From contig CAYRPF010000075.1 of the NCBI GenBank assembly GCA_964426185.1, positions 1-15,331 on the forward strand: a DNA stretch of 15,331 nt, read 5' to 3'. Origin of the DNA: an uncultured archaeon. GTDB lineage: Archaea; Asgardarchaeota; Lokiarchaeia; Sigyniarchaeales; Promethearchaeaceae. Position numbers and translations under genes: made by a program. Below the pieces are notes generated by a model that saw nothing but the letters and a program-made list of their open reading frames with translations, ran no database searches and was not told where the DNA came from. Below, piece by piece: positions 1-15,331 of this stretch; positions within the stretch are counted from its first letter, which is position 1; each line of letters starts with the position of its first letter.

Positions 1-42
1 TCTCTTGGAATAGTCGAAAAATAAAATATCTATGCGCCTTTG

Positions 43-783
43 TTAGTTGAAAATATTTGATTGAATCATTTCTGAAGGATTAACGATTTTTTGAGACAAA
101 TTCTCTTTAAAAGAAGGAAAACGTTTATGAAATGATTGAGTATTCAACATAGGCCAATCTCGAAAAAGAAATAGCGAACTAAGTGGTTTTTTACCAATTT
201 GTTTATAATCTTGTTTAATGGTATTTCTCAGAGCATCGAGATCAAACAATGAAATAATCTCGGAAGATGATAATACATCCAGAAACCTTATGTAATAACG
301 TAATAAATCATCGCTAGTGTCGATGTCGTTTTGAGATTTATATTTATGATAAATTGCATTTTCCAGCAAACATGGATAGGTTTGATGCTCCCACATGATT
401 ACATTTGTAAAAAGAATGAATAATTCTTCCATACTAAGTCTATAGTATATTGATTTATACAATATATTCATATCATCTAAAGGAATTTCTTCCTTATTAG
501 AATATTTCTGTTGTCTTCTAAAAGATTCAATAAATTCGGAATAATTACAATGGACAAAGGAACGCAATACTGTTTCAAAGAATTTCGTGTGATTGTCATA
601 TTGTAGAAAAATCAAAATAGCTCTGTATAAATAATCTTGCATTTGACGTTGACGTGATCGAGTTCGAGTGCAGTTTTTCCACTTTTCTGAAAAAGGATTA
701 CTTTTAGCGCGGTGACTATACTCCAACTCAAAAAAACTAATATCTAACAAGTCATTCATCATTTGGAATATTAATTCTTTCAT
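43..783 (-). CDS. Hypothetical protein (246 aa)
   Basis: Long ATG-started ORF in AT-rich DNA, divergent from the UPF0280 gene; no recognisable motif. Confidence 0.6.
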   Translation of the reverse strand: MKELIFQMMNDLLDISFFELEYSHRAKSNPFSEKWKNCTRTRSRQRQMQDYLYRAILIFLQYDNHTKFFETVLRSFVHCNYSEFIESFRRQQKYSNKEEIPLDDMNILYKSIYYRLSMEELFILFTNVIMWEHQTYPCLLENAIYHKYKSQNDIDTSDDLLRYYIRFLDVLSSSEIISLFDLDALRNTIKQDYKQIGKKPLSSLFLFRDWPMLNTQSFHKRFPSFKENLSQKIVNPSEMIQSNIFN

Positions 784-975
784 TCAGGTATTTCACCGTG
801 CTAGAATGGATAAAAAAAAATGGAAATAAGATTTCACACCTACTACTACTACTTAGCAACTTAGGAAATAAAAGCCTTACGTGTTTTTCTTCACTGATTG
901 TGCTAAATTTAGTGGGAAGATCATCCCAAAACCATAATTTAATTAAATAGGAATTTTATTAAGGAAATAATATAT

Positions 976-1770
976 ATGAGATTCGGTTCAAATCAACGCT
1001 TTTCGCATCATTTTCAATATCATAAATCAGATTGCACCATCATCACCGATGTTCAAGCCAAAATTAAAGTTGCCATGGATAGATTTCATCAAGATCTCTC
1101 AAATCTTGAAAAATTTGTGGAAGAACATCCGGATTGGAAAGATTCCTACTTTCCTGTGAGTATCAGTTCTTCTAATTCGCAAAATTCTGAAAATTCTAAT
1201 AAATCTCGCGATGCAATTATTTCACTGATGGAGGATGCTGCGAAATTAACGAATGTAGGTCCGATGGCAACAGTTGCAGGTGCTTTAGCCGATAGAATGG
1301 TTCAAGTTATATTAACAGAAATAGCAGGTGAAACTCTTCCTCGTGTGGCAGTAGTAGAGAATGGGGGTGAAATCTCCATCAATTCCCAAGAAGATATTAT
1401 TATAAATCTCCAAGTTCTATCTACTTCGCTTCAATCAAAACTCGGATTCAAGTTTATCGGAGGTTCACCGCCACTCGGAATAGCTACCAGTTCAGCTACT
1501 TTCGGACATGCTGATAGTTTAGGAGAAGCAGATGCCGTAGTCGTCTTTGCTCCTTCTGCCGCGATTGCTGATGGGGCAGCGACTTATATCTGTAATGCAG
1601 TAAAGGGAGAGAACAATCAAGCTGCGATTCAAGCAGGATTAACAGCTTTTAAGGATATACCAGATCTGTATGGAGTTTTTATTGTTAAAAATGAAATAAT
1701 TGCTCAGAAAGGAGAAATTCCCCCAATAGTTAGGATAACTGATTCAAAAAAGAAAGGATGTAGAAAATAA
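976..1770 (+). CDS. UPF0280 / ApbE-like protein (COG2122, MA1715-like sulfide assimilation factor)
   Basis: Family motifs VGPMATVAGALAD, VVENGGEI, GIATSSATFGHADSLGEADAVVV and ADGAATYICN; adjacent to a COG1900 gene. Confidence 0.88.
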   Translation: MRFGSNQRFSHHFQYHKSDCTIITDVQAKIKVAMDRFHQDLSNLEKFVEEHPDWKDSYFPVSISSSNSQNSENSNKSRDAIISLMEDAAKLTNVGPMATVAGALADRMVQVILTEIAGETLPRVAVVENGGEISINSQEDIIINLQVLSTSLQSKLGFKFIGGSPPLGIATSSATFGHADSLGEADAVVVFAPSAAIADGAATYICNAVKGENNQAAIQAGLTAFKDIPDLYGVFIVKNEIIAQKGEIPPIVRITDSKKKGCRK

Positions 1771-1775
1771 GTGGG

Positions 1776-1982
1776 TTAATTTAATGCTTGACGTGGACAT
1801 GCATCCAAGCAGAGTTTGCAACCATTGCAATTTTCTACATGAAAATGAAAATAATCATGTTCATCCATCTGCAAAGCCGAAAATTTGCAAATAGATATGC
1901 ACCATCCGCACTGAACACATTTTTCTGGGAAATATTCAATTGTTCGATGAAATTTATCAGTTTTACTACTCATTTCCTTCAT
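1776..1982 (-). CDS. 2x[4Fe-4S] ferredoxin, probable Fe-S partner of aspartate-semialdehyde sulfurtransferase (MA1822/MJ0099-like, no NIL domain)
   Basis: Two CxxCxxCxxxC motifs (CVQCGWCISIC, CNGCKLCLDACP); overlaps the 3' end of the COG1900 gene; GGAGG just upstream of the ATG. Confidence 0.85.
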   Translation of the reverse strand: MKEMSSKTDKFHRTIEYFPEKCVQCGWCISICKFSALQMDEHDYFHFHVENCNGCKLCLDACPRQALN

Positions 1983-3102
1983 AATCCTCCTGAGACAAAT
2001 TTTTAAATTCCGTTTCCCTTGGTAAGGGAAGAACGGGTGGACGGAACGAAATCACCCCTTGTTTGCTCCATTTCTTAAGAATTTTCGTAATTTGCCGAGA
2101 TTTAGCATATGAAGAAGTTGATGACACAGGTATTTGCTTTCCCTCGATTTCAATGACTCTGGATTTCAACTCCTCATAAGAAACTTCTCGCAACAAAGGA
2201 CGTTCTCTTTCTCTGGTAGAATAATCTAATACTGAAGTGAAAATTTCGCTATCCGGAGTTCCACACGTTCGAGCTAATCCTTCGTTTATTATCGGAATGG
2301 GAATTCCCAACCCAATAAAACAACTTGAGCCATATCCTGAAATTGCTGCACCCGCAATAAATTCAGGTGACATTTCTTTTAAATTTCCGGTTACCATGAT
2401 ATTTCCCATCTGAGATCTCGGATTATGCTGAGTGCCAGGACCAATAATCGTTCCTAAAGCACCTCCTAAGAATATTGAAGTTCCGAGACCAATAGTTTGA
2501 TAGGTGGGATCGTTATTTAGAGGTGACATTGTGCCCACTCCTCCATAAGCCCCATTTTGAAGATTTGGTAGAAGTTTACCCATATAAGTATATAAAATTT
2601 CACCAGAATTATTAACTGCACAAACATACCGTTGGTAAGCATTACGAGGGTTTATCATAATTGCTTGATTAAAATTCTTTAATTTCAGACGGACATTTAG
2701 AGATTTTCGGGGATAACAATCAGTTCCCGCGCCGGTAACTTCAATTTGTACGGATTTTCTCCTTAATAAACTTTCCAGAACATGACCTCCACCAAAATTT
2801 TCGTTTTCTGAACTAGTTTGAGTAACCCCTAAGTAAAAATCTGCGGCAGCATTTCCGTGATAGGCATTAATTCCATCAATTACAACTGTTTCCATTTTTA
2901 TGGGAGGATCTGGTTGAGGAATATTGAAAAAAACACCACTTGAGCACATACATCCAAAAGTGCCTGTGGTTACCACATCTACTTCTTCAGCAGCATATTC
3001 CACCCCTTCATTTTCAACTAATTCAACCATTTCTTCTGCTGTCAAAATGACTGCGACGCCATCTTTAATTTTTTTGTTAATTTCTTCATATGTTTTGGTC
3101 AT
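1966..3102 (-). CDS. Homocysteine biosynthesis protein / L-aspartate semialdehyde sulfurtransferase (COG1900, DUF39; MA1821/MJ0100-like), without CBS domains
   Basis: N-terminus KTYEEINKKIKDGVAVILTAEE, VDVVTTGTFGCMCSSG, GGGHVLE, GTDCYPR, NPRNAYQ, YTYMGKLLP, SPLNNDP, GTQHNP; GGAGG SD and ATGA overlap with the aspartate kinase stop. Confidence 0.92.
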   Translation of the reverse strand: MTKTYEEINKKIKDGVAVILTAEEMVELVENEGVEYAAEEVDVVTTGTFGCMCSSGVFFNIPQPDPPIKMETVVIDGINAYHGNAAADFYLGVTQTSSENENFGGGHVLESLLRRKSVQIEVTGAGTDCYPRKSLNVRLKLKNFNQAIMINPRNAYQRYVCAVNNSGEILYTYMGKLLPNLQNGAYGGVGTMSPLNNDPTYQTIGLGTSIFLGGALGTIIGPGTQHNPRSQMGNIMVTGNLKEMSPEFIAGAAISGYGSSCFIGLGIPIPIINEGLARTCGTPDSEIFTSVLDYSTRERERPLLREVSYEELKSRVIEIEGKQIPVSSTSSYAKSRQITKILKKWSKQGVISFRPPVLPLPRETEFKNLSQEDYEGNE

Positions 3103-4628
3103 ATGATTTCCTCCTTTTTTTCATTTTGCTGAGGGATAGTTGAGTTATTACTTTTTTGATCTTGGTTGTTTAAATTTTGATTCTGATGGTTTCCTAGAGA
3201 ATAGGATAAATTAATCGCGTTTGCAATTTCAGTAACATTAATACGCGGAACTACCACTGATACCGTGATTCCTTGATAATCTTGTAAGATTCCATGAGCA
3301 GAAATACCCGAATGTTGCAAAATTTTACCAATTTTTGCAATAATTTCTGCTTGATGTTTCTGATCGGTAATAATTGTAATGATTCCGGCTGGTTGTGCAT
3401 AAATTTGTAGCCATTCTTCTGGGATATGTCCGTTTTTTTGGAATTTTTTTAGTTTCTCCTTCATATCAATATCGATCGTTGATATAAGCAGTCGGTTTTG
3501 TGAGTATGATTGCTGAAGGAGGGACAACTGTAGTTTATTGTGGTTACAAAAGGAGAATAATTCTTGCATAAATGCCATTTCATGAAACAAAAAAGGAGAT
3601 TCTAATATAATAAGATAAGCATTCGCATCTATTTCAATTCCTTTAATTGGAAGACTTACTTTTGATGAAGAAATTAATGTAAATTCAGAACTCTCGGGTT
3701 GACGAAAAGCACGTAGTTCGATGGGGATTTGTTGGTTTTCTATTATGCTGATGCATTTTGGATGTAAAATTTTTGCGCCCAGCACTGCAATTTCCTTAGC
3801 TTCTGTATAATTTAATCTGGAAATCAAATGGGGTGCTTGAATATATTCCGGATTACCAGAAAGTACTCCAGGAACATCCTTCCAAAGAATAATACGGCCG
3901 TTTTCAAATTTTTGAGCATCATGAAGCATTCTCGCTATAATCGTAGCTGTAAAATCGCTTCCCCCTCTTCCTAAAGTTGTCGTGTAGCCGATTTCATTTC
4001 TCCCAATAAATCCCGTAATTACCAAAATTTGGTGATTCCAATTGTTATCAAGTAATGGTACAATTTTTTGAATGATTCGAGCACGAGTATGTTCTAAATC
4101 TGGCACTGCTTTATTATACTCGCTATTTGTGATTATCAAATCTTCCCCAAAAAAAACTTTTGAAGAAAAATTTTCTTGGGAAAGGAATAAATGAACTAAG
4201 GTTGCACACAATTTTTCACCAAATGACATGATATAATCGATAAAATAGGGAACAATGCCGAATTCTGCCACTTCTTCAAGAACAGTTGAAAGATCATGCA
4301 GTATTCCTTGTAATTCTCCTTTTGCAGAGTTTGTTACCTTTAAACTTTCTTCAAATAGATTATCAATAAATTGCTCGTGGATTTCTTCTATTTTCTTTAT
4401 ACGAGCGATTACTTGATGGTCACACCCAGTGCTCGCTAAATGGGTTAATTCTATCAACAAATCTGTTACACCTTTTAAAGCAGAAACAACTACGATAATA
4501 GTGGTAGGTTTTGATTCTTTCTTGAAGTAAGACGTGAGAATTTGCTTAATTTGACTGAAATCTTCAGGTTGGGAAAGACAACTTCCGCCAAATTTCATAA
4601 TTACATTATATTTATTTTGTGTATTCAA
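3099..4628 (-). CDS. lysC: Aspartate kinase
   Basis: MKFGGS, VVVSA, TTTLGRGGSDFTA, WKDVPG and GAKILHP motifs; divergent ACT-like C-terminal region. Start is TTG overlapping the asd TGA; the ATG at MKFGG is an alternative. Confidence 0.93.
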   Translation of the reverse strand: MNTQNKYNVIMKFGGSCLSQPEDFSQIKQILTSYFKKESKPTTIIVVVSALKGVTDLLIELTHLASTGCDHQVIARIKKIEEIHEQFIDNLFEESLKVTNSAKGELQGILHDLSTVLEEVAEFGIVPYFIDYIMSFGEKLCATLVHLFLSQENFSSKVFFGEDLIITNSEYNKAVPDLEHTRARIIQKIVPLLDNNWNHQILVITGFIGRNEIGYTTTLGRGGSDFTATIIARMLHDAQKFENGRIILWKDVPGVLSGNPEYIQAPHLISRLNYTEAKEIAVLGAKILHPKCISIIENQQIPIELRAFRQPESSEFTLISSSKVSLPIKGIEIDANAYLIILESPFLFHEMAFMQELFSFCNHNKLQLSLLQQSYSQNRLLISTIDIDMKEKLKKFQKNGHIPEEWLQIYAQPAGIITIITDQKHQAEIIAKIGKILQHSGISAHGILQDYQGITVSVVVPRINVTEIANAINLSYSLGNHQNQNLNNQDQKSNNSTIPQQNEKKEEII

Positions 4629-5803
4629 AATTTTGACCTCCCAAATAATTTCTTCAAATATAAATATTCGGCATTAAGAACCGCACCTCTGCCAGCCCCA
4701 AGTTCTGTATTATGAGAGAGAACGGTCATTTTAAACCCATTGTTGAAGTTAGAAGGTTCCAAACCTCCAATAAAGGTGGTCATGCCATGATTATCCGAGG
4801 ATAAATCGATTCGAGGTTGGGGACGATCTTTGTATTCTGATGAAAACACCATAATTGGGGTTTTTGGATAATTGAGAAGGCTTTTTCTATCAATTTCTGT
4901 CATGTCATCAGTTCCTTGAAAGTCTTGCAAGCATTTACGAATCTCTATTTCAGTCGCTGTTTTGATAGTCTGGAAGAAGACAGATATCATATGACCTTCC
5001 AGTACTGGGACACGATTGCATTTAACATCTACGATGAAATCTGGGATTGAAAATAATTCTTTGTTCGTCTCAAGTTTTGGGATTTTCGCAAAGATTTTCT
5101 TCAATTCTATCCGAACTTTCTGCTCTTCTTCAGGAATATAGGGTATTATGTTGCCTAATATATCATAAGAACTTATTCCCCCATAGCCTGCCCCGCTAAC
5201 GGCTTGCATAGAAACTGCAGTGACATTTTTCAATCCAAATGTCTTAAAAATTGGATACAATGCCACCGCTAGACCTACTGTGGTGCAATTCGGACCGGGA
5301 CAAATAAAACCATCACTTTTGTTTTTTTGTTGTTGCAATCGAAGTAAATCTGCATGATGTCCGTTAACAATAGGTAAAAATATCGGAATATCAGGTTGAT
5401 ATCGTGCCCATGAGGCTGTAGAAAAAACAGGTACCTTTTTAGCCAGTTTAGACTCGATTAAAGCCGCTTGCTCTGATGGAATTGCTGAAAACACCAAGTC
5501 AATTTCATTGATATCAAGATTTTCTACCGATTTTACTGGTATATCTGCAATTTTCTTGGGTATTTTTTTGGCAGTGGCAGATCGTCTGGCCTTTGAATAA
5601 GGTAAACCAACTGTTCCTAATCCATGAAGGGAGAAAATTTCGAACCAAGGATGGGAAATTAAAGAATCGACTATTGATTGCCCTGCCAATCCTGTACATC
5701 CAATTATAGCTGCTTTCAGTTTACGAGGGCTAGTTATAGTTACGGATTTTTCTTTTTTTTCAATTTTAGGAATTTTTTCCAATTTATTTGCCTGTAAATC
5801 CAT
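4625..5803 (-). CDS. asd: Aspartate-semialdehyde dehydrogenase (archaeal/fungal type)
   Basis: IIGCTGLAGQ nucleotide-binding motif, catalytic PNCTT, QAVSGAG, CNRVPVLEGH, DRPQPRID, SHNTELGAG. Start placed at ATG 5803 (AGGTG SD-like upstream) rather than the GTG at 5890. Confidence 0.95.
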   Translation of the reverse strand: MDLQANKLEKIPKIEKKEKSVTITSPRKLKAAIIGCTGLAGQSIVDSLISHPWFEIFSLHGLGTVGLPYSKARRSATAKKIPKKIADIPVKSVENLDINEIDLVFSAIPSEQAALIESKLAKKVPVFSTASWARYQPDIPIFLPIVNGHHADLLRLQQQKNKSDGFICPGPNCTTVGLAVALYPIFKTFGLKNVTAVSMQAVSGAGYGGISSYDILGNIIPYIPEEEQKVRIELKKIFAKIPKLETNKELFSIPDFIVDVKCNRVPVLEGHMISVFFQTIKTATEIEIRKCLQDFQGTDDMTEIDRKSLLNYPKTPIMVFSSEYKDRPQPRIDLSSDNHGMTTFIGGLEPSNFNNGFKMTVLSHNTELGAGRGAVLNAEYLYLKKLFGRSKF

Positions 5804-5904
5804 TAAATTCACACCTTTATATTTTTTTTTAAGATTTTTAACCGAATTTGTAATGTAGATAGGCGATACTGAAAGTTTCAGAAAATACACGACACTTAAA
5901 ATTA

Positions 5905-6095
5905 ATTAACCTAGATTCCATCGCCCCCCCCATCTGGCGACAGATCATCAACATTTTTCTAAAAACAGAGAACGAGCGATCGAATTTTGATTCCTTAATT
6001 AAAGTGCCTTTGCCATAGCCATCATACTGACTATGGCCCAGCGCATCGGGAACATGGAAAATTTATCCCACTTGCTGCCCATGTATAAATCTAGG
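5905..6095 (-). promoter_or_regulatory. Structured, GC-enriched 5' leader of the asd operon (candidate attenuator/riboregulator)
   Basis: Hairpin 6012..6037 (10 bp, one G-U), hairpin 5918..5943 (8 bp, two G-U), long-range pairs 6088..6095/5910..5917 and 6048..6059/5916..5928. The G-U pairs form only on the minus strand. Confidence 0.55.
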
Positions 6096-6145
6096 AACTT
6101 TAAAGAATCGGATCGCATTATTAGGTTCTTATTGGAAGGCATCAT
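5999..6145 (-). CDS. Putative Met-rich leader peptide / uORF (48 aa: MMPSNKNLIMRSDSLKFLDLYMGSKWDKFSMFPMRWAIVSMMAMAKAL)
   Basis: Hand translation, below the ORF-track cutoff. 9 Met in 48 codons, all ATGs in frame, upstream of the homocysteine operon. True start may be M1 (6145), M10 (6118) or M22 (6082). Confidence 0.55.
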   Translation of the reverse strand: MMPSNKNLIMRSDSLKFLDLYMGSKWDKFSMFPMRWAIVSMMAMAKAL

Positions 6146-6164
6146 TTAAGAAATTAATGAAAAT

Positions 6165-6509
6165 TCAGCCACCACCAATTGGCGGGAAAATGGCTACTAC
6201 TGAATTATCCTTTACAATGGGTGTATTCAATGCTTGCTCAGTGAATAAAATGCGTCCATTTAATATAACTTTAAAATATTTGCGTAATATTGGAATTGGT
6301 TCGGAAAAATCTATGATTTCTTGGAGGAATTTTTGACTTTGAGGAAGAGATCGAGCAATATCTTGCAAAAGTGCACCAATAGTATCCCCCTTTTTAATAA
6401 TATAAAAATTCTTCTTGAATTGGGTCAGATCGCGTAAATTAGCAAATACTCGCACTTCTACTTTTATATCGATTTGATCTTGATCAGGATTGACATTCAT
6501 TCGATTCAC
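6165..6509 (-). CDS. moaD: MoaD/ThiS/SAMP ubiquitin-like sulfur carrier protein
   Basis: VEVRVFANLRD N-terminus, VILNGR, C-terminal VAIFPPIGGG diglycine end; downstream of AOR and its maturase. GTG start, with ATG 6500 as an alternative. Confidence 0.88.
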   Translation of the reverse strand: MNRMNVNPDQDQIDIKVEVRVFANLRDLTQFKKNFYIIKKGDTIGALLQDIARSLPQSQKFLQEIIDFSEPIPILRKYFKVILNGRILFTEQALNTPIVKDNSVVAIFPPIGGG

Positions 6510-6515
6510 TTCACT

Positions 6516-7889
6516 TCATGATTTTCTTCTATTTGAATTGAAATCAAACAAACATTTTACAAAACCCGTACTATATGGACATTCATTGCATCCCGGTTGA
6601 TTCCCATAGCAATCTCCCGTATTGTCTGAGATATAATAGCAGTTTTGGGTTGAATAGACACAATCTCCGCAATAAGGGACTTTAGTTGAAATTGATGTCA
6701 AGATTGAATGAAGTTCAAGTACTTTTTTACATGAAGTTTCGGGATCTGCGATACTTCCTAAAATATAAGGATGAATTATGCGTTCATGATGATTAATTAT
6801 CATTGAATGTTCATGCCCAAAATTATAACATGGAATAATACTACCATCATAAGTAATAAATAAGGCATTTCGTGCTGCAAATGGGCATTCTCGTTTAGTT
6901 GACTCTGCAAATAATGGCGGTAGGTCAATTTTTATTCTCTTTTGTTCAGCTAATTCGGATAAATATGTAAACATTTTTTTTGCTTCTAAGATCGAATACT
7001 TTTTCGTTTGAACATCGGTAATTTTATGTAGATCTAATTCAATTTCCTTATTCTTGATCATTTCGATAGTTTGGAGTAGTTTTTTGATTTGAGAATGCTT
7101 ATCGGCAATTAGAATTTTATGATATTTTGGTGTTAATATAATTTGATCTAAGATTTCCCATCCAATTTTCCCTATTTCATCCAAAATACGGAAAGCTTCC
7201 TCAGATATTGGCAAAAAAATAGATTTTCTTTCCATATCATTTGTATAAGGCAAGAGATGAGAAAAAAATATTTGGGGTATTCCGTTTTTGGAACAAAAAT
7301 CTATTAGAAAGGGGAGATCATATAAATTCTCTTTTGATATGATGGTTTCAATTGCTATTTCTCCTATTTTTCCTGCGTGATATTCATTAGCAAGATAAAT
7401 CAAATTGTCAAATACTTCATTGGTAAAACCTTCTCTCATTTGTTTGATTTTGGCAATAAATGGTGAATCAATCGACACTATAATACGGTCGATGTGATAT
7501 TGAAGGATTAAATTGAGATACTCAGAAGTTAAAAGCGAACCATTCGTAGTAAATTCCAATTTTGCTTTATGTGGTAGAAATTTTCGGGAAATCTGCAAAA
7601 TCGATAAAAAATCAGGATGGGTTAATGGCTCTCCTACACCATACAATATTAAGTGTTCTAAGGTCGGAAATAAACTTTCAGCAATTTTCTCAAATAAATC
7701 AATTGACATCTCCTGACTGATTAGTGAGTTTTGGGCGTGTAAGCACATTTTGCACTCAAAATTACACTTAGTGGTAATTTCCACCTGCAAAGTTTTCAAT
7801 TCAAATGGATTGGATGAATTTTTAGCAGATATATTTGATTTTCCTAATACCTGATGAGAAGAGTTTAAATTCACAGCTGGCAACTCCAT
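6516..7889 (-). CDS. Radical SAM/SPASM protein, probable tungsten-cofactor oxidoreductase (AOR) maturase
   Basis: CNFECKMC (CxxxCxxC), GVGEPLTHP, FTTNGSLL, and a Cys-rich C-terminus (ECPF...IIPCY...CGDC...C...DCYGNQPGCNECPYSTGFVKC); located directly after aor. Confidence 0.85.
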   Translation of the reverse strand: MELPAVNLNSSHQVLGKSNISAKNSSNPFELKTLQVEITTKCNFECKMCLHAQNSLISQEMSIDLFEKIAESLFPTLEHLILYGVGEPLTHPDFLSILQISRKFLPHKAKLEFTTNGSLLTSEYLNLILQYHIDRIIVSIDSPFIAKIKQMREGFTNEVFDNLIYLANEYHAGKIGEIAIETIISKENLYDLPFLIDFCSKNGIPQIFFSHLLPYTNDMERKSIFLPISEEAFRILDEIGKIGWEILDQIILTPKYHKILIADKHSQIKKLLQTIEMIKNKEIELDLHKITDVQTKKYSILEAKKMFTYLSELAEQKRIKIDLPPLFAESTKRECPFAARNALFITYDGSIIPCYNFGHEHSMIINHHERIIHPYILGSIADPETSCKKVLELHSILTSISTKVPYCGDCVYSTQNCYYISDNTGDCYGNQPGCNECPYSTGFVKCLFDFNSNRRKS

Positions 7890-7934
7890 TGAATTAAAAA
7901 AGTAGTACTATAAAAATTCGCTGTTGATATTTTT

Positions 7935-7959
7935 AAAAAAGTGAAGGAAAAAATTTCAC
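7935..7959 (-). terminator. Possible terminator after aor
   Basis: Minus strand GTGAA-ATTTTTTCC-TTCAC-TTTTTT: 5-bp stem plus U tract, about 25 nt after the aor stop. Confidence 0.3.
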
Positions 7960-7983
7960 ATATACATTTTTTTTATTTGGAAT

Positions 7984-9834
7984 TTAGTCAATTCCTAATT
8001 CAGATAATTTTCCCGCAGTGGGTACACCTCTTTCATCCCAACCGCGCAGCTTATAGTATTCCTTCAACATATCATCAAGTTTGAACACTTCTCCCTTTGA
8101 AGGTCCTTCTGGAAGGGGTTCTTCAGACAACCGCTTGGGTAGAAAGTCTTGAGCAACTACACCCAACTTTTCCATAATTACCCGTTGGAGATTGTAAATT
8201 CGTTCACCTACATTTAATACGGTTTCAGCACTAATATTCCAGCCAGTTACAGCAGTCATTAAGGCAGCAAAATCATCCGCTCCCAAGGCAAACGTTGTAA
8301 ATAGGCAGTTCACCGTACTATTCACTGCTGCGGTAAAATCTTGGAATATCTTCACCCATGTTGGCTTAACTCCATAATCTAAACGGTCTATCTGTTCTGG
8401 AAGACCGATTACCTCAGGGGATACAGTATAACCAGTAACATGGCATCCTCCACGATTAGCGGTGGCATAATTTAGTCCGATACCCTTTACTCCTCGGGGG
8501 TCATAGGCAGGCATTTCTAATTTTTTGGCAGTCATACTTAGTTCTGGGTGGCCGTAAGAATTAGCCAAATGATGCGAGCCCATAATCAATTTTTTACCGA
8601 ATCCTTCTCCTTTGCCCATCAGTTTAATGGCATCCACCAACCCTTGACTACTACCGAATTTTAAATCTAATCCTTCGTAATCTGAGGGAGGAATATAACC
8701 TTTCTCTGCTAATTCCATTGCAGCCGCCACTGTAGATCCCGCAGAAATGGTATCAATTCCGTATTCATCGCAGTAATGATTTGCCATAATAACGGCAGGC
8801 ATATCATATACCCCACAACTACTTCCGAAAGCCCAAATACTTTCATATTCAGGACCTTCAGTTTCTGCAATTTTAAATGGACCTTCATCTACCTTAGTTG
8901 CTCGACCGCAAGCGATTGAACAACCCCAGCACGGATGACGTTTGCGTAGATATTTTTCAGTAAGTGTTTCTCCACTAATTTGCTCTGCTTTTTCGCTATA
9001 AGAAAATTGCCAGTTATTTACAGGTAATGAGCCAATATTATTAACTACATTTACTAGAACGGCTGTCCCATATGTTGGAAGACCGGTTCCGCAGACTGGA
9101 TTCTCCTTCATCTTGGCTAAAGTTGATTTAGAGAGCTCTTTGAATTTTTCTGGATCTGCAGTTTCAACTTTCAAAGTTCCACCAGTAACAATTGCTTTCA
9201 ACTTTTTCGAGCCCATTACTGCACCTACTCCTGTTCTTCCGGCAGCTCGATGTGCATCATTCATGATGCCTGCAATTGGGGCTAATTTTTCACCTGGAGG
9301 TCCAATGCATGCTACACTAATTTTATGTCCTACATCTTGGTATTGTTTCTTTAATTGTTCATCCGTTTCAAAAACGGTTTTTCCCCATAAATTCCCCGCA
9401 TCTTTGATAGTTACTGTTCCATTCAAAGCTTCTAAATAAACCGGACCATCAGCTTTTCCTTCAATTACTAGCATGTCGATACCTGCTTTTTTAAGTAAAG
9501 CACCGAATTCACCTCCTGAATTAGCTGATCCAATAGAACCTGTTAGAGGTGATTTTAACATCATCACATGATGTCGACCAGGACTGGGGAAACCTGTGAT
9601 TCCCGTTCCCGGTCCAGTTCCTATCACCAGCAAGTTATCCGGTGAAAAAGCGTCAAATTCTTTCAAATTAACTCCTGCAGCTTCTAATTTTTTAACTTGA
9701 TCCCAGAGAATTTTGGTTCCAAGTCCTGCTCCACCCCAATATTCTTGATAAGTTTTTAGAGGGATTTCCATTAGAGTTGCAGTTCGATCCGAAAGATTAA
9801 CTCGTATTACTTTCCCCATTAATCCATTTCCCAT
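7984..9834 (-). CDS. aor: Tungsten-containing aldehyde:ferredoxin oxidoreductase
   Basis: KSPLTG, SANSGGEFG, AAGRTGVGAVMGSKKLKAI, CWGCSIAC, EGPEYES, DEYGIDTIS, PAYDPRG, NRGGCH, YYKLRGWD; AGGTG SD upstream. Confidence 0.95.
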   Translation of the reverse strand: MGNGLMGKVIRVNLSDRTATLMEIPLKTYQEYWGGAGLGTKILWDQVKKLEAAGVNLKEFDAFSPDNLLVIGTGPGTGITGFPSPGRHHVMMLKSPLTGSIGSANSGGEFGALLKKAGIDMLVIEGKADGPVYLEALNGTVTIKDAGNLWGKTVFETDEQLKKQYQDVGHKISVACIGPPGEKLAPIAGIMNDAHRAAGRTGVGAVMGSKKLKAIVTGGTLKVETADPEKFKELSKSTLAKMKENPVCGTGLPTYGTAVLVNVVNNIGSLPVNNWQFSYSEKAEQISGETLTEKYLRKRHPCWGCSIACGRATKVDEGPFKIAETEGPEYESIWAFGSSCGVYDMPAVIMANHYCDEYGIDTISAGSTVAAAMELAEKGYIPPSDYEGLDLKFGSSQGLVDAIKLMGKGEGFGKKLIMGSHHLANSYGHPELSMTAKKLEMPAYDPRGVKGIGLNYATANRGGCHVTGYTVSPEVIGLPEQIDRLDYGVKPTWVKIFQDFTAAVNSTVNCLFTTFALGADDFAALMTAVTGWNISAETVLNVGERIYNLQRVIMEKLGVVAQDFLPKRLSEEPLPEGPSKGEVFKLDDMLKEYYKLRGWDERGVPTAGKLSELGID

Positions 9835-10143
9835 TTTTCAACACCTTTAATTTTGTGGAATATTCATCGTGCTTCATTTTGTATCCTAAATTCAAAATAT
9901 CACGATATCATACGCCAATGTTAATTGATCTATGTGACTAAAAAGTTTTTTCCTTTACCGTTATGTATTATGAAACATATCGAATAAATATTAAAGGAAT
10001 TGCTTCGAAAGGGAGAATTGATAAAAAAGAATTACTAAGAAGCATAATTTATGAAATTAAATAGAAACGTATTAATCAATCGTGATTTTATGACCTAAGA
10101 ACAAACATTGAGCTGCAATTTTCACACAACACGCTTGTGTATA

Positions 10144-10335
10144 ATGCCAGACGTGTTGATATCCGTGGAATTGCCCAGGTGGTTACCGAAAGAAATTAGG
10201 GAAATCATGGGAGAACACTTTATTTATAGGTTAGCATGGTTAGGGATGACTCAAGAAACTGAGTTGGAATTGAATGAATTTCTTGGAATGTGCTCAAAAC
10301 ATCTATATCTCCGATATTTATATGCAAATGCATGA
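10144..10335 (+). CDS. Small hypothetical protein (63 aa from ATG 10144)
   Basis: Protein-like composition and higher GC than the flanks; no motif; could be spurious. Confidence 0.35.
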   Translation: MPDVLISVELPRWLPKEIREIMGEHFIYRLAWLGMTQETELELNEFLGMCSKHLYLRYLYANA

Positions 10336-10489
10336 AAAAGTAGTGAATGTTATAAAATGATCTTATCTACAACAAATAAATAAAAGATAAGGGTTCAATT
10401 ACATAGTGAATGAAGTGAATGATGTATAAAATTTATTGCAATTAATATAATTCTTTAAATGAGATTTAGGATTATTTCAAATAATTAAG

Positions 10490-11404
10490 ATGGATTTTGA
10501 AACAGGCCAGTTTCTAAATAAAATACCTTATGCTAAAGCGGGTTCAGGTGAAAAAACTATCGTAATTTTTCCACCGACTCATCATTTATTGTGGAATGTT
10601 ACCGTGGATGCAGAAGAACAAGTTAACGGATATAAGCATTTTATTCCTGATAGATTTACCTATTATATTTTAGGGTATGATCCCAATTTACCTAAGGATC
10701 ATACTAGTGAACAAATTGCTGCTGATTTTGCCCAAATTATTCGAGAATATATTGGACCATCAATAATTATGGCTGTTTCATTTGGAGGTTCGGTGGCTAT
10801 TCCATTTGCTGCACTTTATCCAGAATTAACTGAAAAATTGATTCTTCTAGTTTCAACTTATGGTTCCTCTGGAGAAGGGGTAAAATTGGCAAAAGAATTA
10901 ATAAAATTAGCAGAAGAAGGCAAAACTTTCACTTTACAGAAAGAAATTAATCAATTATATTCCAATAGAGTACTTCGACTTTTATTTGATTTGAAAACGT
11001 GGAAAAATTGGCCAAAAATGGAAAGAACTATGAATCCCGTTTCAACTTTTATTAATGCATATAATCATCTACTTGAAACAGCCGAAGAGCGAAAAAAGTA
11101 TCTTCCTATGATTCAATCACCAACATTAATAATTGGGGGAACCAAAGATCAATTCACATCTGAAGAATACTACCGAACTACCGCAGAATTGATTCCTAAC
11201 GCGCACTTAGAATTATTTGAAGGGAAAACACATACAGTAGCTGTAGAGAAATTATTTGAAATTAGGAACATCATCGAAAGCTTTTTAGAGGTGGATAAGG
11301 AAGAAAAGGCAATTTGGAGTAAAATCTTAACAAGAACTCACGAAAAACTCGTGGCAATTAAGCAGAGTGCCAAAATGAAGGTTTTAAAGAAGAAAAGCAA
11401 TTAA
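10490..11404 (+). CDS. Alpha/beta hydrolase fold protein
   Basis: Nucleophile elbow AVSFGG, PTLIIGGTKD (acid) and GKTH (His) catalytic triad pattern. Confidence 0.85.
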   Translation: MDFETGQFLNKIPYAKAGSGEKTIVIFPPTHHLLWNVTVDAEEQVNGYKHFIPDRFTYYILGYDPNLPKDHTSEQIAADFAQIIREYIGPSIIMAVSFGGSVAIPFAALYPELTEKLILLVSTYGSSGEGVKLAKELIKLAEEGKTFTLQKEINQLYSNRVLRLLFDLKTWKNWPKMERTMNPVSTFINAYNHLLETAEERKKYLPMIQSPTLIIGGTKDQFTSEEYYRTTAELIPNAHLELFEGKTHTVAVEKLFEIRNIIESFLEVDKEEKAIWSKILTRTHEKLVAIKQSAKMKVLKKKSN

Positions 11405-11532
11405 TGGTTTTTGTATAATAGAAAGTATTTCATTACCCAATTATGGGTAATTAAAAATCAGAATCGGGTAAGTTTATATATTCTTTAGAACTGTTTTTCT
11501 TGTCTGTAAAACTTATTCAAGGACTGATTTTT

Positions 11533-12216
11533 ATGCTAGAACAATTAAATCAATCAAAAAACGAAGAAAATTCAATAGATGATTCCACTGAACGTAAAAC
11601 AAAGGAAATGTCAAATAGAACTTTGAACTTGGAAATTGCAGGAGCAGCTATTTTCAGCGCATTATCAATTGCTTTATCCTATACCGCAACATTCATTCCA
11701 AGGATACCAGGATGGTACATAGCGTGGTTCGATCCTGTTTCTCTCATCTGGATTGCCGCATTTCTAATTTTCGGTTTTAGAGCTGGACTTATCACAGCTA
11801 TTATAGGAACGATCGGATTGGCACCATTTGACCCTACGATATGGATTGGACCCGTGATGAAATTTTTGAGTACTATTTGGTTTATTGTAATTCCTTATTA
11901 CTGGATGCGGTTGCAGCGTAAATCTTTAACTCACGAGAATTTAAAAGTGCCTAAAAATTATTTCCCACCAATGATTATTGCTTGGATTTTGCGAGTGATA
12001 CTAATGGTGTTTTTAAATATAGTCATTTTGAAATACATGTTTAATGTTTTAGATTATATGACTTTGGGATGGTTGGGATTTAATGCAACAACTGGTGTCA
12101 TCGCTGTGGTTGTTACTGTAATATTCATCAATACCTTACAAACGCTATTTGATGTTTTGCTGCCCTATTTTGTGGTTTTTAAAACACCCATTCAAAAAAC
12201 TCTTTCTGTATATTAA
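11533..12216 (+). CDS. ECF transporter S component (substrate unknown)
   Basis: About six hydrophobic segments; AIFSALS and FDPVSLIWIAAFLIFGFRAG patterns typical of S components. Start uncertain (11500 TTG, 11533 ATG or 11608 ATG). Confidence 0.7.
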   Translation: MLEQLNQSKNEENSIDDSTERKTKEMSNRTLNLEIAGAAIFSALSIALSYTATFIPRIPGWYIAWFDPVSLIWIAAFLIFGFRAGLITAIIGTIGLAPFDPTIWIGPVMKFLSTIWFIVIPYYWMRLQRKSLTHENLKVPKNYFPPMIIAWILRVILMVFLNIVILKYMFNVLDYMTLGWLGFNATTGVIAVVVTVIFINTLQTLFDVLLPYFVVFKTPIQKTLSVY

Positions 12217-12288
12217 AATCCAACAGAAAAATTTTCTGTTTTTTCCATTAATCTATTACTATCACGTATATACTAAACTGATAAAATT

Positions 12289-12528
12289 ATGAAAGAAATA
12301 TCGATTCGAGATGCAGGTATGAAGAATTTACTAGCAAACATGATCTGTTGTGCGAAATGCCCGGTAGTTCAATCAATATATTTAACCGAAGTTAATACCG
12401 TGAAAGTGAAATGCTGTTATGCTGATTCTATCGAATTTCCGTTAAAAAATGGAATAACGATTCAATGCCCATTTAACAAATTACGAAATTGCAATCCAAA
12501 TTTTGTTATAATGGGTGAATTTAAGTAA
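12289..12528 (+). CDS. Small Cys-rich hypothetical protein (79 aa)
   Basis: ATG start, co-oriented between two real genes; 7 Cys (CCAKCP, KCCY, QCPF, NCNP). Confidence 0.55.
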   Translation: MKEISIRDAGMKNLLANMICCAKCPVVQSIYLTEVNTVKVKCCYADSIEFPLKNGITIQCPFNKLRNCNPNFVIMGEFK

Positions 12529-12563
12529 AAATTTATGAAATCCGAAGATATAATATATTACAG

Positions 12564-13508
12564 ATGTCAAATTCATTTAATCCACTTGGAATTCCCCATA
12601 TTAGAGTAAAAACGGGTTATCCCACTTCTAAGGCTATTATTCGACATCCAGATTTAATACCCTATTTGAAAACGCGTTATCCACCGCGTATTGATAATGA
12701 AAATCGTGATTTTCTTTTCCGATATAATAAATACATCGCACAAGACTTATTCGGATTGAATCTTCAGTTTGCACCTTCTGGAATAATACCCACTCCTGTT
12801 CTTCGCTATAATTTTCTCAAATACGCGCTTCATCCCCGCGATATTCCTTATTCCGATAAGAATCTCTCAAATCTTAAAAACACCTCAAATCTTGAAAACA
12901 CCTCAAATCTTGAAAATTCAGAGTCTAACGCTGGAAGATCGAAAATTGTGTTAGATATTGGAACAGGGGCCAGCGCAATTCTTGCCTTACTCGCAGCAAA
13001 ATGTTTCAATTACCGAGTTTACGCCACTGAAATTGATCCCGAATATATATCTATTGCGCAAAAGAATATCTTTAATAATAGCTTACAGAAAAAAATCACC
13101 TTACTTCCCTCATCAGGCGGAATTATTGATTCTGTGATTCCTTCTGATTTAAAAATAGATTTTGTTATTTCCAATCCTCCATATTATAACAAAATCTTAT
13201 CACCAAAATTAATTTGGGGTGGGAAATCGCATGAATTGATCAGTAAGGGAAATGCAGGTGAAGAGTTTATTTTACACATGATTACAGAAGGCTGGCCACA
13301 TCTAAAACCTGGAGGTATCTTAGCATTTTTAATTCCAAAAACCCGAACAGATACGTTAATTGCCGTAGAAGAATTTTTGAAAGAAGGAGAATATGACTAC
13401 GAAATAATTGGGCTATTAGTGGGAAACAGAACGCGCTATGTTTTCCGAGTTTTTAAAGAAAATACTTATATTGACGAGACTCAAATGCGGTCTGAAATGT
13501 TGGATTAG
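12564..13508 (+). CDS. RlmF-related / METTL16-family N6-adenine RNA methyltransferase
   Basis: IIPTPVLRYNF, SAM motif VLDIGTGASAI, ATEID, catalytic SNPPYY, GEEFILHMITE, GNRTRY. Confidence 0.8.
   Translation: MSNSFNPLGIPHIRVKTGYPTSKAIIRHPDLIPYLKTRYPPRIDNENRDFLFRYNKYIAQDLFGLNLQFAPSGIIPTPVLRYNFLKYALHPRDIPYSDKNLSNLKNTSNLENTSNLENSESNAGRSKIVLDIGTGASAILALLAAKCFNYRVYATEIDPEYISIAQKNIFNNSLQKKITLLPSSGGIIDSVIPSDLKIDFVISNPPYYNKILSPKLIWGGKSHELISKGNAGEEFILHMITEGWPHLKPGGILAFLIPKTRTDTLIAVEEFLKEGEYDYEIIGLLVGNRTRYVFRVFKENTYIDETQMRSEMLD
12866..12919 (+). repeat. In-frame 18-bp tandem repeat x3 (CTCAAATCTTRAAAAYWC)
   Basis: Units 12866..12883, 12884..12901, 12902..12919 encode SNLKNT/SNLENT/SNLENS. Confidence 0.9.
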
Positions 13509-13543
13509 GAATTTCTGGGTTTGGTAAATCTTTCATATTTTTA

Positions 13544-13960
13544 ATGGAACCTCAAATTTCTAACACACATCAAAAGATAAATGCAAAATTATGCGGGGAA
13601 ATTCTTGAAATCAAGAATGAACGTTGTCGAATCGGATTAATATTGGCACCCGAGATGGCTGTAGATGATTATAAATTAGTCCACGGGGGATTTATCTTTG
13701 GATTAGCAGATTATGCAGCAATGGTCGCAATTAACCATCCGAATGTTGTTTTGGGAAGCGCAAATGTGAAGTTTCTAAAACCCGCCTTGGTGGGGGATTA
13801 TCTGATTGCAGAAGCCATAAATGTTCAAAAGGTGGGGAAAAAGAGGATAGTTGAGGTTAGAATAAAAAGAGGCGGAGAAGAAATATTTCACGGGGAATTT
13901 ATTTGCTTTACTCCAGCAAAACATGTGTGTGAATCTGTAAATAATCTAAAAGAGAATTAA
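13544..13960 (+). CDS. PaaI-family hotdog-fold thioesterase
   Basis: VHGGFIFGLADYAA motif and VKFLKPALVGD. Confidence 0.88.
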   Translation: MEPQISNTHQKINAKLCGEILEIKNERCRIGLILAPEMAVDDYKLVHGGFIFGLADYAAMVAINHPNVVLGSANVKFLKPALVGDYLIAEAINVQKVGKKRIVEVRIKRGGEEIFHGEFICFTPAKHVCESVNNLKEN

Positions 13961-13995
13961 AAAGATTTGGCAAATTCAAAAATGTGCTGAAAAAA

Positions 13996-14463
13996 TTAAT
14001 TAGGACTTATATTGTCAAGATCTGATAAATCTAATCCTAAATCCATATCATCAGGCATTTCACTGAGAAATTCATCCAGTATACTGCGCAACTCCTCACC
14101 AGAACGCTTCAATACCAAACGAATCAATCCTAGATTAACATCTACATCTGAGATCAAACATAAAACGCCCCGTAATCCTGTGGCACAGGCGAATATTTTA
14201 CCTTGATCAAATTCACTAGTAACTATTTGTAAAGCGCCCAGTTCAAGATTACGCCCTTGTTCTTCTGATGCACAAAATACTGCAGATGCAATAGCTCCTA
14301 TTCCATCTGCATCAACGGGAATATATGAAAATTTTGAAACGTGAGCGATGGTTAAACCGGTCCGATCAACTAGAATTACTTTTTTGATGCCAGATTCGGA
14401 TTTAATAATTTTTGAGAGGATATCATTGAAAGATTTTGTAGATAATGACATAATATTTACCAT
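13996..14463 (-). CDS. Roadblock/LC7 (MglB/LAMTOR-like) domain protein
   Basis: GIKKVILVDRTGLTIA, IGAIASAVF, LELGALQIVTSEFDQGKI, VNLGLIRL; acidic C-terminal tail. Confidence 0.88.
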   Translation of the reverse strand: MVNIMSLSTKSFNDILSKIIKSESGIKKVILVDRTGLTIAHVSKFSYIPVDADGIGAIASAVFCASEEQGRNLELGALQIVTSEFDQGKIFACATGLRGVLCLISDVDVNLGLIRLVLKRSGEELRSILDEFLSEMPDDMDLGLDLSDLDNISPN

Positions 14464-14566
14464 CAGATTGTGTTAATTTATATGAATATTCAATATTACT
14501 TATTTACTAGGATCATGTTTAAAGTATAAATAATTTTGGCTCACTTCGAATGAGCCTTTGTATTAT

Positions 14567-14617
14567 GTTAAGCTGTGATTACTTAAAAGAAATAGGGTTA
14601 AGCTGTGATTACTTAAA
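14567..14617. repeat. Two identical 21-bp direct repeats (GTTAAGCTGTGATTACTTAAA), period 30 bp, each containing TTAAG-N9-CTTAA
   Basis: Copies at 14567..14587 and 14597..14617, upstream of the Roadblock gene. Confidence 0.85.
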
Positions 14618-15007
14618 TCAATATTGCCATGCAGAAATAGTTGAAACATTTCATAAGTATCATAATCTAATTATGCGGTTTTTTCCTCAGTTTTTTTGGG
14701 AGATTTCAGATGATTTGATAATCCTAATGAAGTTAATTTTGATGGGTTGTATAATAAAAAGATCATTTGATCATATAATTCGTCATTGAAGATTAAACCG
14801 TATCCACTCATTTTGATTATAGATCTAATGAAAATTCACAAATATAAATTGACCCCTTAGAAGTTATGAACGAATTTCAAAAAAAAGTGGATTTCCCCCC
14901 ATTGGGTTAATAACATTTACCGATTAGTAATAAAAAAATTATTGATAAATGTATCCTTCTGATAATAAATCGAAAACCATTATATATTACTCAATTCTCT
15001 TATATCA

Positions 15008-15331
15008 TCATTTAACATGGAATAGATCGGCGAATCGTATAAAAACTACGACTGGTAGCAATAATTGGAAAATTCCTTTTCCAAGTTGTGTAATTGTATA
15101 AGAAACACGAACAGGTGTGCCAGTATGAACTTTGCGCTCAATGATTTGAAATTTTTCAAGTTCTTTCAATCGCTTTGATAAAGTGCCAGGATTTATATAA
15201 GGGAGATTTTCTTTAATTTGGTTGAAATATTGAAATTGCATTCCATTCAGAAGAAAAATTAAATCCAAAGTATATTTTCCTTGAAGCATTTCCAAGCCTG
15301 GACGCAATTCTTGGAGTTCATTTTGGAGATG
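15008..15331 (-). CDS. HxlR-family winged helix transcriptional regulator (5' end probably outside the window)
   Basis: LQGKYTLDLI, FNQIKENLPYINPGTLSKRLKELE, PVRVSYTITQLG; the frame stays open to the window edge (HLQNELQELRPG...). Confidence 0.85.
   Translation of the reverse strand, partial: HLQNELQELRPGLEMLQGKYTLDLIFLLNGMQFQYFNQIKENLPYINPGTLSKRLKELEKFQIIERKVHTGTPVRVSYTITQLGKGIFQLLLPVVVFIRFADLFHVK

Follow-up and report, generated by a model that had tools for sequence, protein, structure and literature searches.

We analysed a stretch of DNA of 15,331 nucleotides (nt), here called the window, from an uncultured archaeon (NCBI GenBank assembly GCA_964426185.1, contig CAYRPF010000075.1, positions 1 to 15,331), and in particular the 315-nt leader (6118-5804) of an operon read from its minus strand. 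The first gene of this operon is asd-like (5803-4625) and is followed by genes for an aspartate kinase (4628-3099), a COG1900/HcyBio protein (3102-1966) and a small 2x[4Fe-4S] ferredoxin (1982-1776); Pfam places the first in Semialdhyde_dh, and the second is of the AA_kinase family. COG1900 proteins and small ferredoxins constitute the L-aspartate-semialdehyde sulfurtransferase that forms homocysteine from aspartate semialdehyde in methanogens (PMC12068725). Since the last two genes encode such a homocysteine-forming pair, the operon spans the route from aspartate to homocysteine. The gap between a ThiS/MoaD-like gene upstream and asd measures 361 nt. Reading of the sequence places a Shine-Dalgarno (SD) motif, GGUG, at 5815-5812 and the ATG of asd at 5803-5801; in relatives the motif is GGUG or GGAG at a matched position, 6-9 nt 5' of the ATG. 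A convergent ApbE-like gene lies beside the operon in relatives. The host genome (G000) has a G+C content of 34%. The closed genome G001 of the same genus carries a small-subunit ribosomal RNA that scores 1472 bits on the archaeal model, profilin-family matches are present in genomes related to G000 and in none of 14 control genomes, and the asd proteins nearest to this one bear the names Ca. Harpocratesius sp., Promethearchaeota and Ca. Lokiarchaeum ossiferum, which together identify the host as a Lokiarchaeial Asgard archaeon.

Homologous leaders were collected from related genomes, metagenome contigs and a protein database together with the encoding contigs. Orthologues of asd share more than 50% identity, which sets them apart from a paralogue of the same genomes at 35-39%. 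A small methionine (Met)-rich open reading frame (ORF) lies directly 5' of asd in 11 leaders that belong to five lineages, i.e., G000 with L147, the closest relative; G001 with L148 (Harpocratesius); a group of G002-like leaders; genus g6 (G007, G012, L067); and L156. The leader occurs where asd is followed by aspartate kinase, as in the asd-ask-COG1900 homocysteine operon, and was found neither at orthologous asd genes followed by dapA/dapB of the lysine branch or standing in other contexts, nor ahead of stand-alone HcyBio genes; L152 is the sole exception to this association. The upstream neighbour is ThiS in genus g1 and a different gene in g6, indicating that the leader ORF travels with asd. 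Among the 80 asd loci listed from metagenome contigs, only L067 has the leader. When 60 relatives were searched at the DNA level for the intergenic region, only G001 of the same genus matched, and there only the ORF part, all other matches being to a poly-A stretch; a search of genome contigs for related loci returned only two distant bacterial asd genes.

Several observations adjoin this distribution. Most genomes of the order (G001-G060) carry two asd types, at 35-39% and above 50% identity to the gene in the window, and whether the latter type is linked to ask-HcyBio or dapA-dapB varies with the genus. At L038 (G010, Lokiarchaeum ossiferum-like; reverse strand 2593-2853), dapA follows an asd orthologue that is preceded by a 37-codon ORF with six Met codons and KKK near its end, after which come a UAUCGCA...UGCGAUA helix and two U5 tracts, without the start-region word that we call S1 below; it is either a diverged leader of the same origin, here on a lysine-branch operon, or a chance resemblance. 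A second COG1900/HcyBio paralogue in G000 (C50:19155-20051, L172) shares 36% identity and has no leader; MMP16-like COG1900 proteins function in coenzyme M synthesis in methanogens (PMC12068725). The HcyBio homologues L166, L167, L168 and L171 (genera g7, g4 and g2) stand alone, with no asd or ask 5' of them, and their open frames of about 490-515 amino acids, against 378 here, suggest an additional fused domain. A crude scan of G000 for intergenic mini-ORFs rich in Trp, His or Cys gave no convincing second leader. We also tried a genome-wide scan for small ORFs whose start can pair with the region behind their stop, which was set aside as too noisy (532 of 4,766 passed).

In the window, the leader ORF (5999-6118, minus strand) has 39 codons and encodes MRSDS...MMAMAKAL, with seven Met residues; its Met codons are scattered over codons 13-38. 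The earlier note on this DNA, made from the sequence alone, had described a 48-codon frame starting at 6145. That extension is particular to this genome: homologous ORFs have 39, 51-55 or 33 codons, and because three clades share both a length of exactly 39 codons and a start of the form MR(S/F)(D/E), we place the conserved start at the ATG at 6118. Met makes up 12-36% of the codons in the 11 leaders (18-36% in most lineages), compared to 2.1% in the long ORFs of G000. Counted by frame, ATG triplets within the leader ORFs number 102, 3 and 0, so that 102 of 105 are in frame, and the insertions and deletions among copies of the G002-like ORF are multiples of three that preserve the frame. Two further ideas about this ORF were discarded. 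CGA at codon 2 is uninformative as to an RNA-level constraint since this codon is not rare (26% of Arg codons), and a role for Met13 in positioning a collided disome on the start codon was dropped, as L067 has Thr at codon 13 and the first internal Met of G002-like ORFs is codon 31.

The ORF could instead encode a functional Met-rich micropeptide, with the RNA helices described below merely stabilizing or localizing its messenger RNA. The exact 39-codon length in three clades would suit this explanation, and the gene caller of one assembly did call the ORF as a gene. However, G000 and L147 share 57% of peptide residues against 79% of nucleotides, close to the estimated neutral rate, and seven peptide residues differ between G012 and G007 while the RNA downstream of the ORF is 98% identical. 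By this rough estimate the peptide would be drifting about neutrally. The ORF matches no Pfam family, and what is kept in it, to judge from the comparison, is its Met codons, its length and the first few nucleotides, i.e., the RNA word at the start, rather than a protein. We therefore regard a functional micropeptide as very unlikely.

Upstream of the ORF, a TATA-like A/T element (TTTCTTAAAT, 6144-6153, minus strand) is centred about 30 nt 5' of the start and is a putative promoter. Comparable elements are found in all five lineages between -39 and -23 from the ATG of the ORF, with centres 28-34 nt upstream. In none of the five lineages is the leader ORF preceded by a Shine-Dalgarno motif, in contrast to asd. 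The combination of a TATA-like element at this distance and a missing SD suggests a leaderless ORF; it is probably leaderless or nearly so, which would put its first codons at the extreme 5' end of the RNA. A terminator-like hairpin (6169-6185, minus strand), formed by CCGCCAAUUGGUGGUGG with CUGAAUUUUC behind it, extends over the final codons and the stop of the ThiS-like gene and sits 20-30 nt ahead of the TATA-like element.

Alignment of 12 homologous leaders (alignment A2, in which the row from G010 is doubtful) shows five conserved blocks: S1, X, a pyrimidine-rich U4-U5 tract, Y and Z. All lie on the minus strand. S1 (6105-6116; GCGAUC-C-GAUU, block AAUGCGAU(U/C)) covers codons 1-4 of the ORF and is complementary to X (5974-5986; AAUUC-G-AUCGCUC, block (G)AUUCGAUCGCU(C)), the strand that S1 and Z share. 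Y (5943-5936; block UAUCGCC) pairs with part of Z (5915-5926; GGGCGAU-G-GAAU, block GGGCGAUAGAAUC). A further copy of UAUCGCC, W (5862-5868), was read from the sequence and could also pair with Z; it is only partly conserved (AUCG) in L147, G001 and L148. The cores of the pairing segments are GCGAU (codons 1-3) in S1, AUCGC in X, AUCGCC in Y and GGCGAU in Z. Apart from the doubtful row, every leader contains AUCGCU. The spacing between ORF and X is likewise kept: in the ten Met-rich leaders in which a Z core is present, the AUCGC core of X begins 14-18 nt past the stop codon (18 nt here), and the outer part of X begins 9-14 nt 3' of the stop in all lineages. At this distance an archaeal ribosome terminating at the ORF might cover X, the next pairing segment.

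X has two partners. The helix formed by X and Z (P1; 5985-5982 and 5980-5974 with 5926-5920 and 5918-5915) is paired in 85.9% of alignment cells, a value that 0 of 500 column shuffles reach, with slid controls giving 30-48%. Four of its pairs change on both sides, and the outer helix is AUUC/GAAU in g1 and GGAUCA/UGAUCC in g6. The duplex of S1 and X has a predicted energy of -10.6 kcal/mol here and -14.5 to -22.8 kcal/mol in relatives, with z-scores of -3.0 to -7.5 when the partners are shuffled for comparison. It consists of GCGAUC/GAUCGC and GAUU/AAUU in G000 (6+4 bp), of a continuous 12 bp in G002 (GCGAUUGUUUCC/GGAAGCAAUCGC, with S1 moved to codons 3-7), of 9+5 bp in g6 and of 8 bp in L156. 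When all 120 matchings of the strands of the five lineages were compared, the native one ranked first for S1:X and fourth for X:Z. The alignment thus gives X two conserved, covarying and mutually exclusive partners, S1 and Z, and Z in turn has two partners, X or Y. Ensemble energies of the two states, each forced in turn, differ by 2-9 kcal/mol, with the favoured state varying by lineage, and the unconstrained minimum free energy (MFE) structures likewise alternate between the two states across lineages.

The earlier note had drawn a different map of the span 5905-6095. It proposed four helices on the minus-strand RNA and suggested that ribosome position on the Met codons, or a ligand, selects between hairpin B and the pair C/D, as in terminator/antiterminator switching. 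Each of the four can be read where it was placed: hairpin A (6037-6028 with 6021-6012; 10 bp and a loop of 6, in the Met-rich 3' part of the ORF), hairpin B (5943-5936 with 5925-5918; 8 bp including two G-U pairs, with a 10-nt loop that falls in a G8 run at 5931-5924), helix C (6059-6048 with 5928-5916; 12 bp with one bulge) and helix D (6095-6088 with 5917-5910; 8 bp). The span also folds better than shuffled controls, with an MFE of -64.2 kcal/mol (z = -3.99; none of 200 shuffles as good), compared to only -45.2 kcal/mol for its plus strand. The MFE structure contains A, D, which closes it, and a local pairing of segment C. Hairpin B and the long-range helix C are both absent from it, and the helix AUCGCUC (5980-5974) / GGGCGAU (5926-5920) takes the place of B.

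Comparison with relatives retains only part of this map. Hairpin B, the pairing of Y with Z, is conserved, with 7-8 of 8 pairs in G000, L147, G001 and L148; RNAalifold returns it as the consensus for the g1 domain, and genus g6 has a sequence-shifted equivalent (UAUCCUCC/GGAG-c-GAUA) in its MFE structure. Hairpin A is complete (10/10) in G000 and L147 only, other lineages having non-homologous hairpins at its place that are easily built from AUG and CAU; A and B together are 63.6% paired in A2, against 59.8% in shuffled alignments. The proposed competitor of B did not hold up: C and D are paired in 51.9% of cells, against 52.9% when columns are shuffled (364 of 500 shuffles as good), and they already decay in the closest relative, L147, to 8 of 12 and 3 of 6 pairs, with lower values in the others. 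By our estimate, chance alone would supply about one exact 8-mer complement in some 360 nt, and no terminator-type U run follows B. Only this genome has the G8 run (5924-5931) and the AU-rich tail; L147 has GGAGAAUUGGG at the place of the run. Helices C and D are thus probably fortuitous, being kept in no relative, and a model in which C (6059-6048) and D (6095-6088) displace a terminator-like B by pairing with 5928-5910 is extremely improbable, even though all its helices exist in this sequence. The broader notion of mutually exclusive helices tied to a Met-rich ORF, B among them, stands, with X as the conserved competitor in place of C and D. The first interpretation was right in kind and wrong in its helices, and the corrected map bears on any experiment built on C and D.

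The short words themselves admit another explanation, namely that the ATCGC/GCGAT copies at S1, X, Y, Z and W are sites for a DNA repressor or an RNA-binding protein, and that their pairing is incidental or secondary. Five copies of a 5-7-mer within about 260 bp at 34% G+C, where we estimate about 0.3 by chance, invite such an explanation, and S1 at the presumed transcription start is where an archaeal repressor would usually bind. However, the sequences that flank the words covary in the manner of antiparallel complements, differently in each lineage, and sites 140-250 bp downstream of the promoter would be unusual for an operator. The strand asymmetry points the same way: the earlier note had argued that wobble pairs, G-U on the minus strand and C-A on the other, favour function in the operon's transcript, and one pair of a conserved helix is indeed U-G in 8 rows and U-A in 3. 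Together with the far more stable fold of the minus strand, these observations make protein sites quite unlikely as the primary explanation.

A metabolite riboswitch is a further candidate for the same helices. In this scheme, a domain enclosed by P1 (5986-5915) would bind S-adenosylmethionine (SAM), S-adenosylhomocysteine, Met or homocysteine independently of the ORF. SAM riboswitches control the same pathway in many bacteria, a covarying closing helix with an alternative hairpin would suit such an architecture, and the interior of P1, where kept (within g1), includes Y and the U-tract. An Rfam search gave no match at the gathering score in the window, however, and in 5750-6250 only two chance-level matches at E <= 10 (E of about 8-9). 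A covariance model of the g1 P1 domain (R1) finds one site per g1 genome, no copy in g6, no second locus and none before other Met or SAM genes; the element is thus single-copy, and the failure of R1 to find the g6 copies indicates that the 45-65 nt between X and Z are not conserved between genera. This leaves hardly any conserved unpaired nucleotides for a binding pocket, and the frame-specific Met codons and the fixed spacing from stop codon to X would go unexplained. An ORF-independent switch for SAM or another metabolite, which the earlier note had raised as an option, is therefore unsupported here, and we consider it rather improbable. A lone weak match to R1 in G011 was rejected, as it lies inside a coding frame on the opposite strand.

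Drawing on the observed ORF, helices, covariation, spacing and link to the operon, we propose that the 315-nt leader of the asd-aspartate kinase-COG1900-ferredoxin operon is a ribosome-read methionine attenuator, a reading to which we assign a probability of roughly 0.55. The transcript would begin at the AUG of the 39-codon ORF or a few nt from it. In one state, S1 would pair with X and close the ORF into a loop, and Y and Z would form hairpin B; in the other, X and Z would form P1, and B would be excluded. With ample Met-tRNA, ribosomes would clear the ORF, and either the freed S1 would pair with X or a terminating ribosome would mask X, so that the first state is adopted and the operon is OFF. 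With scarce Met-tRNA, ribosomes would stall and queue on the Met codons and cover S1, allowing X to pair with Z, and the operon would be ON. The site of the transcription start, the identity of the ON state and the output step are what we infer in this scheme. As for the output, the transcript would most likely end early or be cleaved at the oligo-U tract that is conserved between X and Y, with control of asd translation as a second possibility.

Archaeal terminators are U-tracts helped by aCPSF1/FttA. Here, the pyrimidine/oligo-U tract CUCUGUUUUU (5961-5970, minus strand) lies between X and Y and is a candidate archaeal termination or cleavage signal; a U4-U5 tract with preceding pyrimidines is present between X and Y/Z in every lineage. 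The same ORF and helices might instead gate the ribosome-binding site of asd, as translational attenuation of the type proposed for mycobacterial poly-cysteine short ORFs, where a leaderless short ORF and an RNA duplex provide the closest published analogue (bioRxiv 10.1101/834739). With the X:Z state forced, the share of the SD predicted to be unpaired does rise, from 0.12-0.50 to 0.67-0.92, in L147, G001 and L148, i.e., in three of eight leaders. No such change is predicted in G000, G002 or G007, however, and neither a conserved anti-SD segment nor a conserved duplex with the downstream ribosome-binding site was found in the leaders. The SD itself is situated 100-130 nt past Z, where conservation is poor. 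Gating of asd translation is in our view unlikely to be the output. The G002-like leaders L035, L150 and L154 have a CCUCC...GGAGG hairpin between Z and asd, about 90-60 nt before asd, which is confined to this lineage; its GGAGG is SD-like and is not the SD of asd.

Several observations weigh against the proposed methionine attenuator. The leader is known from five lineages only, and several rows of the alignment are close kin, so that counts of covariation are small. L152 has asd followed by aspartate kinase and yet lacks the leader. The Met density of the ORF is unremarkable when set among the 19,222 small ORFs of G000 alone, and L156 keeps the RNA elements with only 4 Met in 33 codons. A ribosome stalled inside the loop would not by itself forbid pairing of S1 with X, which makes the queueing step a conjecture. 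Concerning the output, a simple terminator scan found no hairpin-plus-U-run terminator at B, which is followed by AAUCUAGGUUAAUUAAUUUU, or elsewhere in 6118-5804; given that none is present, the output cannot be a bacterial intrinsic terminator. The U-tract lies 7-10 nt from X in g1 and about 40 nt from it in g6, and the accessibility predicted for the U-tract and for the asd SD changes inconsistently between the forced states across lineages.

Ribosome-mediated attenuation is a textbook bacterial mechanism, and the Asgard leader resembles the E. coli leaders trpL, hisL, leuL, thrL and pheL in that a short leader ORF, here predicted and enriched in Met, is rich in codons for the end product of the pathway. 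As in the trpL type, the stop codon lies near the next pairing segment and the helices are mutually exclusive; strand-sharing helices are conserved with covariation. X would correspond to segment 2 and S1 to segment 1, and whether X takes S1 or a downstream partner would decide the formation of the distal hairpin Y:Z, the counterpart of 3:4. The differences are equally marked. The leader belongs to an Asgard archaeon and would sense Met, X has its upstream partner in the start-codon region, at the presumed 5' end, rather than in the regulatory codons, and the competition is of 2:4 with 3:4 rather than of 2:3 with 3:4 as in bacteria. In place of a G+C-rich hairpin with a directly following U run there is only the conserved U-tract between X and Y, and no intrinsic terminator was found ahead of the first gene (6118-5804).

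Another parallel is the mycobacterial 'Cys ribulon' (Canestrari et al., bioRxiv 10.1101/834739), in which leaderless poly-cysteine short ORFs are proposed to remodel an RNA duplex through ribosome stalling. In both cases a probably leaderless ORF rich in one sulfur amino acid heads an operon for its synthesis (here, of its precursor homocysteine), and in both the proposed sensor is a stalling ribosome that remodels an RNA duplex. In contrast, the present ORF is archaeal, its Met codons are scattered without a tight run, the start of the ORF is itself a strand of the switch, and no conserved duplex with the downstream ribosome-binding site was found. Similarly, the element shares with SAM riboswitches (S-box/SAM-I and the other Rfam SAM classes) the plan of a cis-acting leader with alternative helices before Met or homocysteine genes, whereas it matches no Rfam family, has an unconserved interior and hence no candidate pocket, and is tied to an ORF that is predicted to be translated. 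Constitutive internal termination has been described within archaeal operons (PMC10450193). Like archaeal U-tract terminators, the leader has a pyrimidine-rich U4-U5 tract, in this case 5' of the first structural gene; unlike the constitutive internal ones, its tract has a conserved two-state fold and a sensor ORF on its flanks, so that termination would be conditional. Our literature search found leader-peptide attenuation in bacteria only, with no described archaeal case, and archaeal small ORFs in 5' untranslated regions appeared there only as possible upstream ORFs in ribosome-profiling (Ribo-seq) papers.

The genes upstream of the leader form a separate block on the minus strand. It comprises genes for an aldehyde:ferredoxin oxidoreductase (9834-7984), a radical-SAM/SPASM protein (7889-6516) and the ThiS/MoaD-like protein (6509-6165), which ends in GGG. 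The block (6165-9834) is conserved directly 5' of the leader in genus g1 and is also seen in L148 (1-2533) and L153 (1-1022). It resembles clusters for maturation of the oxidoreductase cofactor. The ThiS-like protein may also take part in sulfur transfer to the neighbouring homocysteine pathway.

Taken together, the comparison is consistent with an archaeal homocysteine operon whose leader RNA is conserved, linked to translation and able to adopt two states, and in which the attenuator principle would take a new form. Its fullest version is more tentative, and we regard it as possible rather than probable: Asgard archaea would gauge methionine with the ribosome, with stalling and queueing on a leaderless Met ORF keeping S1 off X and flipping a three-way switch over hairpin-independent termination or cleavage of the U-tract/FttA type, a device built for archaeal machinery rather than a bacterial copy. 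The leader offers a defined target of about 315 nt in which specific compensatory mutations are possible. If the proposal is true, attenuation would operate without a terminator hairpin of the bacterial type, the link between U-tract/FttA termination and translation would become directly testable, and transcription-translation coupling would sense amino acids in the archaeal lineage closest to eukaryotes.

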